A DNA stretch of 64,000 bases from a virus: IMG/VR virus record IMGVR_UViG_3300043788_000023, positions 105,609 through 169,608 of that record; one strand, written 5' to 3'. Below, one piece after another: positions 20,937 through 36,044 of the stretch. The notes under the pieces were generated by a model that worked only from the letters and a program-made list of their open reading frames with translations, was not told the DNA's origin and ran no database searches. Both the position numbers and the translations under genes were made by a program. Numbering within the stretch: position 1 is the stretch's first letter; each line of letters starts with the position of its first letter.

Positions 20937-22634
20937 TCAGTTCTCCACCTGTAAGATGCTCGCCACGGACGGGATGCCGGACGAGTTCACAAGAAAAAGC
21001 ATGTAGTAGCCCGGAGGGGCTACGGAACCGTTGGGCGGCACGGTCGCGGTCAGCGAACCGGAGCCGGATGTGAAAGTCACGCCGACGTAGCGCTGATCGG
21101 TGTCAAACGAGTGCGTGTCAGCGCCAAGCTTCATCAGTACGACCGTCTTGATGTTGGTGTTCGGCGTTGCGATCTGAAAACTCTGACCGTAGTGCAACAC
21201 GGTCGGTGCGGTCGTGATAGTCGGGCGGGACGCCGGGGAACCATCCGGGTTCCAGAAGTACGGCGGTTGATACACTTCAATGTGATTGTCAAATTGTCCC
21301 TGCGCTGGATTGCTGCCCATGGAAACCACGGAACCGTCCGGCAGAAGCAGCGCCGTGTTGTGGTAGAGCCGGGCGTAAGCCTGCGTCCCTGCGGGGCTGA
21401 ACGAATCCGTCGCCGGGTCATAGATTTCCGCATCCAGCGATGCAGTCGCCGGGTCTTCGTCGTTCGCAGAACCAGCCATCGTCAGCACTTTTCCGTTCGG
21501 TAGAAGGACAGCTTGCATTTCAATGCGTCCCAGCTTCATGTTGCTTTTGCTGTAGACCCAAGCCGGATTCGGCTGGCTGAGGTCAATGGTTTCCACGGTG
21601 TTCGTCGCCGGGTCGTTCCCGCCGAACGTGACGACCGTTGGCTTGTACGTGGGCGGCACGAGCGGAAGCAGAACAGCGGAGCCGTAGGTGCGGATGCCCG
21701 TGTAGTTCGTCTTGGCAACTTCGTTCCAGACCGTGGGGTTCGCTGGGTCAAACATGTAGGATTGCACATCAGGTCCAGCGTAGAAGACCTTACCGTTCGG
21801 CAGCAGGAACATGCGTGGATAAAGCTGCGGATAGAAGCCGTTGTCAACTGTTCCGTTCAGCGCAGGGTTCGTGGCGAAGTACGGGTCGTTGAAGTCCCAG
21901 CCGTTCGCCGCGCTGTAGAATTCCACGGTGTTGTTGTCCAGTGCGTTCTGATCTTGTCCGCCGAATACCATCATGCGTCCGTCGCCTAGTTCAACCACGG
22001 TCGGGTACCAGCGCCCATCCACCATCGGAAGGTCGGTGTCCGTAAAAGTCGTTGTGTTCGGGTCATAGATCGTTGCGTTTGAGGAACCAAGAAACTGGTC
22101 ATCCGCAACGGTGGAGGCGTTTCTTGCCACCTTGTGCCCCGGCATCCGTTCGGAAGTATTTGTCGCTGCGCCCGGTGCGCGTTCAGGTTGACTGTGCCCC
22201 ATCGCCCGCATCATTGCGGCGACTGTGCCGCCAGCGTAACTCTGCGTGCCTCCTGCGACGAACAGCCGCCCGTCAGGCAGGTGGGCAGCGCCATTGCAGA
22301 AGATGTCCCAGCTAGTGGTGGGAATGGTCGTGATGGTCTGCTTGATTGGATCAAGAACCGCCGCCGTGTACTGTGCGGGTGTGGTCGGGCATCCGGCTTG
22401 CGTCGGCGGGCAGTTGCCGGAGCCTTGGAGAGTCACTACCGTGCCGTCCGGCATCAGCGCCGCATGAATCGGATTGATCGGCATGGAGGCCGGGACGGTA
22501 TTCCACACGCCGTCAGGATGTGGCGTGTACGTTGGGGGAGGCGGGGGCGGTGTGCCGGGATCGGAAGTCTGCATAGACCCACCGCCGCAGGCTGTCAAGC
22601 ACAATAGAGGGAGCAATGCCAGAAAGCGTCTCAT
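20937..22634 (-). CDS. Galactose/glyoxal-oxidase-like copper radical oxidase lipoprotein (AA5, DUF1929 C-terminus)
   Basis: Lipobox LTAC; DIFCNG, RWYPT, RLYHN, THSF copper/cofactor residues; APPGYYMLF. Confidence 0.9.
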   Translation of the reverse strand: MRRFLALLPLLCLTACGGGSMQTSDPGTPPPPPPTYTPHPDGVWNTVPASMPINPIHAALMPDGTVVTLQGSGNCPPTQAGCPTTPAQYTAAVLDPIKQTITTIPTTSWDIFCNGAAHLPDGRLFVAGGTQSYAGGTVAAMMRAMGHSQPERAPGAATNTSERMPGHKVARNASTVADDQFLGSSNATIYDPNTTTFTDTDLPMVDGRWYPTVVELGDGRMMVFGGQDQNALDNNTVEFYSAANGWDFNDPYFATNPALNGTVDNGFYPQLYPRMFLLPNGKVFYAGPDVQSYMFDPANPTVWNEVAKTNYTGIRTYGSAVLLPLVPPTYKPTVVTFGGNDPATNTVETIDLSQPNPAWVYSKSNMKLGRIEMQAVLLPNGKVLTMAGSANDEDPATASLDAEIYDPATDSFSPAGTQAYARLYHNTALLLPDGSVVSMGSNPAQGQFDNHIEVYQPPYFWNPDGSPASRPTITTAPTVLHYGQSFQIATPNTNIKTVVLMKLGADTHSFDTDQRYVGVTFTSGSGSLTATVPPNGSVAPPGYYMLFLVNSSGIPSVASILQVEN

Positions 22635-24702: not shown

Positions 24703-24777
24703 TGGTACCCATGGAGGGATTCGAACCCCCATAACACGCCTATCGAGCGTGCGTCCTAGCCGTTGGACGACACGGGT
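24703..24777 (-). tRNA. Atypical tRNA with GAT (Ile) anticodon, C33/G38 and a Glu/Gln-like D arm
   Basis: ACCCGTG/CATGGGT-ACCA; TCGTCCAACGGCTAGGAC; CACGC-TCGATAG-GCGTG. Confidence 0.75.
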
Positions 24778-24789
24778 AAAACAAAATCG

Positions 24790-24941
24790 TGGTGGAGCGT
24801 GCGGGATTCGAACCCGCTTCGGTACCAAACGATCTCAAGCCCATCCAGCTTCGGATTTTTGCCCGTCGCCTTCAACTGCTCGCTTGCGATCCGGGGAGTC
24901 GAACCCCGCGTGAGTCGTCGCTCTAGCCTCCAAGCCGCCCC
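24790..24941 (-). ncRNA. 152-nt tRNA-like RNA with an Ala-type G3-U70 acceptor and two T-loop arms
   Basis: 5' GGGGCG pairs with CGCTCC-ACCA; internal GCGGGGTTCGACTCCCCG and terminal GCGGGTTCGAATCCCGC. Confidence 0.65.
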
Positions 24942-24950
24942 ACAGAAATT

Positions 24951-25026
24951 TGGTAGGCGCGACTGGGATCGAACCAGTGACCTCAGTCTTATCAGGACTG
25001 CGCTCTGCCAACTGAGCTACGCGCCT
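24951..25026 (-). tRNA. tRNA-Ile(GAT)
   Basis: AGGCGCG...CAGTC-CTGATAA-GACTG...CGCGCCTACCA; canonical cloverleaf. Confidence 0.95.
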
Positions 25027-25327: not shown

Positions 25328-25356
25328 ATATTACTGGAAGTCCAGAAATATGTCAA
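25328..25356 (-). promoter_or_regulatory. sigma70 promoter of the minihelix-leader-tRNA transcript
   Basis: TTGACA-17 nt-TAATAT, with an overlapping TATAAT 3 nt further on. Confidence 0.75.
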
Positions 25357-25688: not shown

Positions 25689-26590
25689 TCAAGCCTTGAT
25701 TAGCGGTAGTTCCTCGGGCATGATCCCGAAGGTGTCCCACCAGAACTCGGGCTGTTTGTCCCCGTTGTTCCGAAAATAGCGTCGGCCTTCACGCAGGGAC
25801 TTCTCCATGCGACCACGTTCCCCATCCATCCAGCCCATAAACGAACATTCCACGCCCTGCGGGTTGAGACGCATGAATCGCCGGATCAGGCGACGGCAGA
25901 CGTAGTTCCTGCCCCTGTTGCCCGGCACGATGTCCTGCTCGCGGAACACGCACAGGGTGCGGAAATGGTCGCGGGACACCGGGTCTAGGTCCTGCCGGAA
26001 GAGGCTCGTCTCGTCCACGCGGCTTTTGCCTTCCACGATCTGAAGCATGCGCTCGTAGCCGAAGCCCACGTCCACGGAGTGCCCCATCGGGTTCACGAGA
26101 TTGCCTACTTCAAGCCCCTCCGGCGTGAACAGTTCCGAGCAGTAGCCGCCCACGGTGCCGTCCGACCAGACGCAATCCGGGTCGTGGCACACGGGGAAGA
26201 CTCCGTTCCAGTGCCGCTCAAAGCCGGACTCCGGGTGGATGTTTACGTGGGAGATCGGGATGCCGAGGTCGCGGACGATGCCCGTCCACATGTCGCAGTG
26301 CCGCTGGTAGTCGTCCGTGCCGAAGCCGAAGCTACCGACCATCTGGAAGAAGGTCAGGTGCGTGCCGTCGCCGACCTCGTCGATGTCATTGGTGCGGACG
26401 CAGTGCTGGATGTTGCCGTGGCTGGTGCCGTCCGGTGTCTGGAACCTTGGCTTGAGTGGCTGCATCCCCGCGCTGATGAAAAGCGTGGTGGGGTCGTTCT
26501 CGGGGATTATGTTGGTGCTTGGTTCAAAGGGGAGACCGTTCTCGCTGAAGTGGCGTCGAAGGGTCTCGTTTAGGCGTCCCGCTGTGACAT
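25689..26590 (-). CDS. alaS: Truncated alanyl-tRNA synthetase (catalytic domain only); N-terminus out of frame with the SD-equipped ATG
   Basis: [69 protein letters not shown]. No editing or C-Ala domains. Confidence 0.8.
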
Positions 26591-32784: not shown

Positions 32785-32889
32785 TGGAGCGCCTGGGGGG
32801 ATTTGAACCCCCGACCAACGGATTATTTCTCCGCTGCTCTTGCGAGGTCGGTTTTAGAGACCGCCGCTCTACCACTGAGCTACAGGCGC
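32785..32889 (-). tRNA. 105-nt tRNA with a CTA (amber) anticodon and two extra hairpins
   Basis: GCGCCTG/CAGGCGC-TCCA; CGGT-CTCTAAA-ACCG; insert CTCGCAAGAG and GCGGA-GAAATAA-TCCGT. Confidence 0.75.
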
Positions 32890-35438: not shown

Positions 35439-35729
35439 GTCACCACGGCTCAGGGGATTTTCCGGCGCTCATCCTCAGCATTGTTCCCGACGCCAAGGTT
35501 TGCCTATTCTTCTTTCGGCGCAATCGCACCGCTGTCCCCGAGTTGAAGAACGTCCAAGCAGCGGGGGTCAATTCCCCCTTCAAGACAAGCGCAGGTGAGT
35601 TTTACGTCACCTCTCCCCGCAAGCCCTGTCACACTTGGCAAAGTCTAGTCTCCCGTAGGTTTACTTTCGGAACCGATGACGTCTGCTGCCCACGGACACT
35701 GGAGCCTTCTGTATGATACCACCAGAAAC

Positions 35730-35753
35730 AAAAAAGCCCAGCCGAAGCTGGGC
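35730..35753 (-). terminator. Terminator of the tmRNA gene
   Basis: GCCCAGC-TTCG-GCTGGGC-TTTTTT. Confidence 0.85.
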
Positions 35754-35754
35754 G

Positions 35755-36044
35755 AATTTTGTGGTGTTGAGGATCAGAGACACCGTCTCTGGGCACGCAG
35801 GTTTTTAAGCTGCGGCTGCCATTGCCATTGCCTTTGGAGCAGTGACGTTTAGTTGTTTCCATCCTGATTTTCGAGGGTATGGTACCTCGGGTCGCTAGCT
35901 CCGTCCTCGCACGTCTTCCGTCGAAACCGATTACCCCCGCAGTGGTGGAGGTAGAGGGAATTGAACCCTCGTCCGAAAAGACTGTCTGGTGCCTTTTACC
36001 CCCACACTTACCCTTCGGCAGTCTACAGGGGCTTACGACCATCT
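35755..36044 (-). ncRNA. ssrA: Circularly permuted (two-piece) tmRNA
   Basis: The acceptor piece ends GGACGAGGGTTCAATTCCCTCTACCTCCACCA (35943). After a 4-nt spacer comes GGGGGTAATCGGTTTCGAC (35938), giving G3-U70. The tag frame ends ...VTAPKAMAMAAAA-TAA (35805). Confidence 0.9.

Follow-up and report, generated by a model that had tools for sequence, protein, structure and literature searches.

The minus strand of the window, the whole 64,000-nt stretch of DNA analysed here, contains at 24790–24941 a 152-nt tRNA-like RNA gene with an alanine acceptor and two T-arms, and an anticodon arm cannot be built by hand from any part of its sequence. We read this element as a genuine gene, restricted to one phage lineage, whose RNA is a tRNA mimic that does not decode and derives from a tRNA-Ala-like top half. 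We give a functional mimic of this kind a probability of about one half, and judging by its sequence such a mimic is probably alanylatable. The element is well supported as a gene; the fold of its junction is unproven and its function we infer. The source is a 169.6-kb IMG/VR virus record of an uncultured jumbo phage from soil, with a CheckV completeness of ~54%. No description of such an RNA is found in Rfam or in the literature searched.

In the following, RNA position p equals 24942 minus the coordinate in the window, and all features lie on the minus strand. The 5' acceptor strand GGGGCG (24936–24941, RNA 1–6) bears G3 of the G3·U70 pair. It faces the 3' acceptor strand ACGCUCC, which is followed by the discriminator A149 and a genome-encoded CCA (together 24790–24800, RNA 142–152). 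From the sequence, the pairs read G1–C148, G2–C147, G3·U146, G4–C145, C5–G144 and G6–C143, and all six are invariant in the three copies compared (n=3). Position 7 of the acceptor is a G7·A142 mismatch, so that the helix has six pairs rather than seven. As in any tRNA, the terminal T-arm 2 (24801–24817, RNA 125–141; GCGGG-UUCGAAU-CCCGC) lies immediately next to the 3' acceptor strand of 7 nt. The element thereby has what is expected of an RF00005 member at this end, namely an acceptor coaxial with a canonical T-arm, a discriminator and CCA. The alanine identity set G3·U70, A73, G2–C71 and G4–C69 is present together with the 3' CCA and is invariant in all three sequences. A GGGGCG/CGCUCC-ACCA acceptor with G3–U70 and a normal terminal T arm had already been proposed in a sequence-only reading of this DNA, and both can be read directly on the minus strand.

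Between the acceptor strands, a D-arm-like hairpin (24920–24935, RNA 7–22) of the form GCUU-GGAGGCUA-GAGC resembles the canonical GCUC-AGUUGGUA-GAGC, with an alternative pairing to RNA 115–123 possible. The linker GACGACUCACG (24909–24919, RNA 23–33), in which A27 is G in both homologs, leads to T-arm 1 (24892–24908, RNA 34–50; CGGGG-UUCGACU-CCCCG). This arm is invariant and is the second, interior T-arm hairpin of the sequence-only reading. Its 3' strand is followed without a gap by the 5' strand of helix H (24882–24891, RNA 51–60). Helix H is capped by a variable tip (24841–24881, RNA 61–101), which is 41 nt long in the window copy, and is closed by its 3' strand at 24831–24840 (RNA 102–111). 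The invariant linker GUUUGGUACCGAA (24818–24830, RNA 112–124) contains a canonical D-loop-like UUGGUA and connects helix H to T-arm 2.

Annotation tools pass over the element. ARAGORN makes no call at 24790–24941 in its default, intron (0–200 nt), tmRNA, relaxed-score or mitochondrial modes, in line with the earlier statement that no anticodon arm is recognisable. No Rfam family is found there at gathering score. Neither at gathering score nor at E≤10 does the element match RF00005 (tRNA) or any Rfam intron family. With the Rfam tmRNA models, matches are limited to 17-nt T-arm fragments, at 24801–24817 and 24892–24908, with 10–13 bits against a 47-bit cut-off; both T-arms are thus recovered as T-arms. 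At E≤10 the top whole-element match is YrlA, which scores 13.2 bits (cut-off 69 bits) and is shifted onto the adjacent tRNA, and an identity as YrlA is rejected. The tRNA, tmRNA and YrlA models that had been suggested as a check therefore assign the locus to no known family. A descriptor consisting of GGGGC, two T-loops and GCTCCACCA matches once in the window and in none of 100 shuffles.

The window copy contains a 14-codon frame, GCA GUU GAA ... GCU UGA, at 24841–24880 (−) (RNA 63–107). It starts with the usual tmRNA resume codon, and its stop codon, which lies in a strand of helix H, is GCG in both homologs. The frame is absent from L075 and L077, the contigs that carry these homologs, and probably arose by chance. 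The earlier claim that the RNA has no tag frame holds in substance. With the tmRNA models unmatched, no pseudoknots and the tag frame lost in both homologs, we also rejected an identity as tmRNA.

The element is embedded in a tRNA operon. In the window ARAGORN finds 11 tRNAs and a permuted tmRNA, none of them at the element. A sigma-70-like promoter (TTGACA-17-TAATAT, 25328–25356, minus) is followed by a Thr/Gln/Ile-rich leader and by an attenuator hairpin of the terminator type; L002, L075 and L077 retain both the leader and the terminator. A tRNA-Ile(GAU) gene at 24951–25026 (minus) ends 9 nt before the element, and another at 24703–24777 (minus) begins 12 nt after it, both called by ARAGORN and Rfam. 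Downstream of the second tRNA-Ile follow three tRNA-Thr and then three tRNA-Gln genes, and all neighbouring tRNA genes encode their CCA. With its 9- and 12-nt spacers to the tRNA-Ile genes and the promoter upstream, the element occupies a tRNA slot of a polycistronic precursor. Of the suggestion that it is a chargeable tRNA mimic, the identity set, the acceptor/T stack, the CCA and the fit into a tRNA slot all stand, and charging itself would follow from the known rules of AlaRS recognition. Elsewhere in the window, at 32788–32889 (−), Rfam calls a tRNA of 102 nt with 62 bits that ARAGORN misses. It sits between tRNA-Glu(CUC) and CUA-anticodon tRNAs and may have a long insert or a long variable arm.

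A metagenome scan yields two syntenic homologs at exactly the same operon position, both in soil metagenome contigs: L075:1094–1247(−) with 154 nt and L077:1165–1295(+) with 131 nt. The sequence-only reading had called for a covariance model built from homologs. This model, R1, made from the three sequences, gives 162–190 bits for these three only, and across 1.19 Mb of phage loci no other sequence exceeds 30 bits. We define as core RNA 1–60 plus 102–152 (111 nt) and compare it in the three full sequences from the window, L075 and L077. The core is nearly invariant, with eight variable positions and ~94–98% identity among the copies. Between the window copy and L075 the core differs at 7 of 111 positions and the tip at 9 of 43 (Fisher p=0.015), the tip differences being two indels and about seven substitutions. 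The tip measures 41 nt in the window, 43 nt in L075 and 20 nt in L077, where it is a simple hairpin UGCC-AGUAAUA-GGCA. The GA/GG internal loop at its base is conserved.

Six of the eight variable core positions fall within helix H, which pairs RNA 51–60 with 102–111. Four of its ten pairs show one-sided changes (G–C or A–U to or from G·U) with pairing kept, and the G55·A107 mismatch of the window copy is G–C in both homologs, which therefore have a perfect 10-bp helix. All six substitutions in the helix keep or improve pairing. Two-sided, compensatory covariation is absent among the three sequences. None of the three copies has lost either T-loop, any part of the alanine identity set or the CCA.

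In the fold that we prefer as a model, the RNA would consist of two cross-paired tRNA top halves, one forming an open alanine head and one a closed head. The crosswise pairing is seen in 1–6/143–148 and 51–60/102–111, and either helix has the other half's T-arm stacked on it. Each half would run from a 5' helix strand through an N-UU(U)GG D-loop-like motif to a T-arm that stacks on the helix of the other half. Helix H extends T-arm 1 without a gap in the way the acceptor extends T-arm 2, and T-arm 1 on helix H, capped by the variable tip, would make up the closed head. G3·U70, CCA and a free end are all missing from this internal head. Folding the L077 copy without constraints gives a minimum-energy structure in which the acceptor, T-arm 1, helix H, the tip hairpin and T-arm 2 are all present. 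The two T-arms are complementary to one another, and in the thermodynamic optimum of the window copy, of L075 and of the alignment they form one duplex instead. We judge this pairing less likely because both sequences are perfect GGUUCGAnUCC T-arm motifs. The overall folding z-score of the element is only −1.45. For the junction, two models have similar energies and the fold is ambiguous. Model 1 keeps hairpin 7–22, and in it the invariant UUUGGUA (113–119) of the 3' linker stays unpaired as a further D-loop-like element. Model 2 pairs 9–12 with 120–123 and 14–18 with 115–119 and forms a small hairpin at 19–30. The changes G14U and A27G give model 2 extra pairs and no more, and they provide covariation for neither model.

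The distribution of the element is very narrow. In the closest viral relative (L002/L006, with a mini-AlaRS 81% identical to that of the window) the terminator is followed directly by the odd tRNA-Ile and by tRNA-Thr, and the first tRNA-Ile and the element are both absent. A complete 332-kb relative (71%) has two tRNA-Ile genes 18 nt apart and carries no copy of the element genome-wide. The element was not found in GenBank phages, bacterial genomes or the other loci examined. By blastn against 74 loci, GenBank phages and the whole records of five relatives, it gives only T-arm or acceptor-end matches. Apart from tandem pairs of tRNAs and a single TLD-only gene, pattern scans of viral contigs for GGGGC, T-loop, T-loop and GCTCCACCA return nothing. 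The viral-contig scan with a shorter T-loop spacing returns no match, and neither does a search of viral contigs for an exact 21-mer of the core. A viral scan for two tandem CTCCACCA ends gives mostly Gly/Pro-rich coding repeats, and the pattern scan of genome contigs gives one chance match, an ordinary tRNA-Ala. Ala-type ends in the 69 viral loci with a mini-AlaRS belong to tRNA-Ala genes or to a small number of unusual candidates that carry no annotation; none is related to the element. We also considered an origin from the tRNA-Ala genes of the relatives and rejected it, the similarity being merely generic (20–22 of 28 nt at the 3' end). In these searches the RNA is restricted to this phage lineage. 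Because it is missing from the closest relatives with the same operon and from the complete 332-kb genome, the phage group is evidently not dependent on it.

Further copies are present in public contigs covering the region. An identical piece occurs in a freshwater run, a contig from lake water spans the full element and differs by 12 substitutions but by no gap, and a soil contig holds an L075-type copy. A 168-nt contig from a peat metatranscriptome reads adapter, 8 unmatched letters, the RNA from nt 152 to ~28, and adapter. It gives a weak hint of transcription, as a single low-depth contig from one library in which DNA carry-over is possible.

The narrow distribution would also be expected of a neutral by-product, in which a tRNA-Ala-like gene recombined with a piece of another tRNA gene, was scrambled in this way and is still transcribed and trimmed within the operon without having a function. 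We consider this somewhat unlikely. It agrees with the loss of the element from relatives that have the same operon, with the lack of two-sided covariation and with the mismatches G7·A142 and, in the window copy only, G55·A107. Conservation as such is a weak argument against it, since the operon is ~90–95% identical and tRNA-Thr(CGU) is identical in all three copies over the aligned part. Any decay, however, is unevenly spread. Differences are concentrated in the tip, which also carries large indels, while T-loops, alanine identity set and CCA are intact in every copy. The six substitutions in helix H keep or improve pairing and repair one mismatch, the deletion in L077 has left a tidier closed hairpin, and copies persist across several habitats. 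At the other end of the scale, we find it scarcely credible that the element is a tRNA-Ala gene interrupted by an insert, removal of which by splicing would yield an ordinary decoding tRNA. The tRNA-Ala-like ends would suit such a gene, as would the lack of any tRNA-Ala gene in the 169.6-kb fragment. The complete relative, however, has tRNA-Ala genes in a different cluster, and for this reason the missing half of the present genome probably holds them. Moreover, an anticodon stem-loop does not assemble and ARAGORN with introns of 0–200 nt is negative. The sole loop-like CGC triplet lies inside helix H and is CGU in L075; the sequence around it, AUCGCAA (RNA 52–58), was tried as an anticodon loop and rejected on these grounds. 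A group I intron does not fit into ~75 nt, the number of extra nucleotides here.

Two further explanations start from tmRNA. The element could be a tmRNA-like, TLD-only RNA that binds SmpB (and EF-Tu) and modulates or blocks trans-translation of the host. For this there is a precedent in mycobacteriophage DS6A, where a TLD-only molecule strongly inhibits tmRNA, perhaps by SmpB titration (PMC4131195). Like the tmRNA TLD and the DS6A molecule, the element is phage-encoded, has an alanine acceptor with G3·U70, A73 and CCA and a T-arm, and lacks an anticodon and a conserved tag frame; RNase P processing and AlaRS charging are expected in both cases. The phage has its own permuted tmRNA (RF04321) at 35714–36036, 11 kb from the element, and a bona fide 80-nt TLD-only gene exists in another viral contig (L004). 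An SmpB gene is absent from the 169.6-kb fragment. We nevertheless regard this explanation as improbable. The 5' side of the tmRNA consensus, like that of the L004 gene, has a GG-UUCGAC D-loop analogue, and the element has a D-stem-like hairpin in its place. Further features without a counterpart in a tmRNA TLD are its complete second T-arm and the 10-bp helix that ends in a variable tip. Pseudoknots are missing and the covariance match is limited to the 17-nt T-arms, with ARAGORN negative in tmRNA mode. A P2a-type helix adjoining the T-arm in standard geometry was not found, a weak 9–12/120–123 pairing being possible, and relatives retain the tmRNA without the RNA. More doubtful again is a permuted two-piece RNA, in which the tip is excised and the two pieces, with a second free end, are held together by the acceptor and helix H. 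The order T-arm, 3' strand, variable segment, 5' strand in the internal head is the acceptor topology of permuted tmRNA, of which the genome has an example, and the tip is free in length and sequence. In contrast to permuted tmRNA, the internal 3' strand is not followed by CCA and the internal helix has no G3·U70 alanine pair. Helix H has 10 bp and not 7, and there is no sign of removal of the tip: the single contig from the peat RNA library crosses it unbroken (RNA nt 28–152).

The truncated AlaRS that the sequence-only reading had placed about 750 nt away is indeed encoded at 25689–26465 (minus). The ORF of 258 aa matches Pfam tRNA-synt_2c and is a compact homolog of the AlaRS catalytic core. 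It belongs to a family of at least 320 proteins of ~255–265 aa, which occurs in 69 viral loci. The family profile aligns to approximately residues 55–361 of 435-aa AlaRS fragments, with internal deletions, and alignment A1 shows many invariant Gly, Arg, Cys and Trp positions. A role of this enzyme as the specific partner of the RNA is not borne out. The RNA is confined to the window and two metagenome contigs, whereas the mini-AlaRS occurs in many phages without it, and those phages carry tmRNA and tRNA-Ala genes. It is likewise missing from the relatives whose mini-AlaRS is 81% and 71% identical and lies in the same operon context. A specific link between the two is unsupported because the enzyme family is far more widespread than the element. 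Tunturi 5 was considered as a cultured relative carrying the operon and dropped, as tblastn with the mini-AlaRS gave no match in the cultured relatives of the phage collection.

A non-decoding alanine mimic could be made and used as follows. RNase P requires only the acceptor/T stack. A cut by RNase P at G1 and 3' trimming to CCA would release the RNA in the same way as the neighbouring tRNAs; we infer this because both steps need only the acceptor/T stack. In the work of Francklyn and Schimmel in 1989, acceptor helices (minihelices) with G3·U70 were reportedly charged by AlaRS. The open head of the element, a 6+5-bp acceptor/T stack with G3·U70 and ACCA, shares with alanine minihelices what AlaRS needs. 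AlaRS charges tmRNA via G3·U70 (PMC3929946, PMC3985003), and alanine minihelices and microhelices are its substrates (PMC11392972). By the same rules, AlaRS would alanylate the open head via G3·U70, as it does minihelices and tmRNA. Since the RNA cannot read codons, it would most likely compete for proteins that read the acceptor end and the elbow of tRNA, or serve them as a decoy. Candidate targets are host toxins directed at tRNA ends, defence enzymes and tRNA-handling factors. This decoy role may take perhaps half of the share given to a functional mimic.

Compared with synthetic minihelices, the element is a natural gene, a larger RNA and one with a second elbow. With YrlA (RF02553) it shares a tRNA-like module, a T-arm with a D-arm mimic, within a non-coding RNA that also occurs in phages. 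The 5' and 3' ends of YrlA form a Ro-binding stem, whereas those of the element form a CCA-ended alanine acceptor. T4 RNAC and RNAD (species 1 and 2) are stable RNAs of ~120–140 nt inside the T4 tRNA cluster. To our knowledge, neither alanine identity nor two T-arms has been reported for them. Location in a phage tRNA cluster and similar size are what they share with the element, a likeness by description only. Their function is still unexplained (PMC9697503).

Several other loci attracted our attention during the scans. The 80-nt gene at L004:797–876 (−) (IMGVR_UViG_3300006149_000023) directly follows a tRNA-Ile(UAU) and has the look of a TLD-only tmRNA, with a GGGGCUG/CAGCUCC-ACCA acceptor, a GGUUUCGAC D-loop analogue, a short P2 hairpin CUACGA/UCGUAG, GGAC and a T-arm; it goes uncalled by ARAGORN. 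In contig L076 (Ga0181568_10091040), positions 150–450 (−) hold a tandem array of at least four genes of ~66–70 nt, spaced by 4–5 nt, none of them called by ARAGORN. They combine a GGGG..CUCCACCA alanine-type acceptor (G3·U70) and a T-arm with a non-standard core. Matches of 28–31 nt to the element occur in Roseobacter phage DSS3P8 (KT870145.1:6588–6618), Mycobacterium phage Nanosmite (MW578836.1:57068–57098) and Acidovorax phage ACP17 (KY979132.2:319–346). They cover a T-arm and an alanine-type acceptor 3' strand (RNA 120/122 to 147/152), coincide with no annotated feature and may represent unannotated alanine-type tRNA-like or tmRNA genes. In the complete 332-kb relative, a hairpin at L079:1480–1560 (−), equivalent to G001:C1 ~21010–21090, is identical to T-arm 1 over 19 nt (GCGGGGUUCGACUCCCCGG). 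It stands in a non-tRNA context, is followed by a GCGAC-UCAAGG-GUCGC hairpin and is not called as a tRNA by ARAGORN. Within the operon, the spacer between the second tRNA-Ile and tRNA-Thr(CGU) is an insertion hotspot. There L075:960–1020 (−) carries an insert of 52 nt that includes a perfect palindromic hairpin of 13 bp (ACCCAUAUAGCGG...CCGCUAUAUGGGU), and in L007:12130–12343 (+) the insert is 214 nt long and contains a small ORF.

For annotation, the element is a warning: to standard tRNA, tmRNA and Rfam tools, genes of this kind look like empty spacers within tRNA arrays. The narrow distribution limits the weight of the finding. Tentatively, we consider it possible that this double-elbow alanine acceptor, with one chargeable and one closed head, stands for a wider, undescribed class of anticodon-less alanine mimics of phages, which, in the contest between phage and host over tRNAs, would capture toxins or enzymes of the host directed at the ends or elbows of tRNA, or would recruit AlaRS or EF-Tu. 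The main known examples of mimics that retain just the amino-acid-accepting half of tRNA are tmRNA and synthetic minihelices. An alanine head joined to a closed second elbow in a natural phage gene would be a new architecture. If the RNA is charged and stable, it would provide an object for studying how phages use non-decoding tRNA-like RNAs, possibly as decoys against tRNA-targeting defences, as competitors for AlaRS, EF-Tu or SmpB, or as alanine donors.
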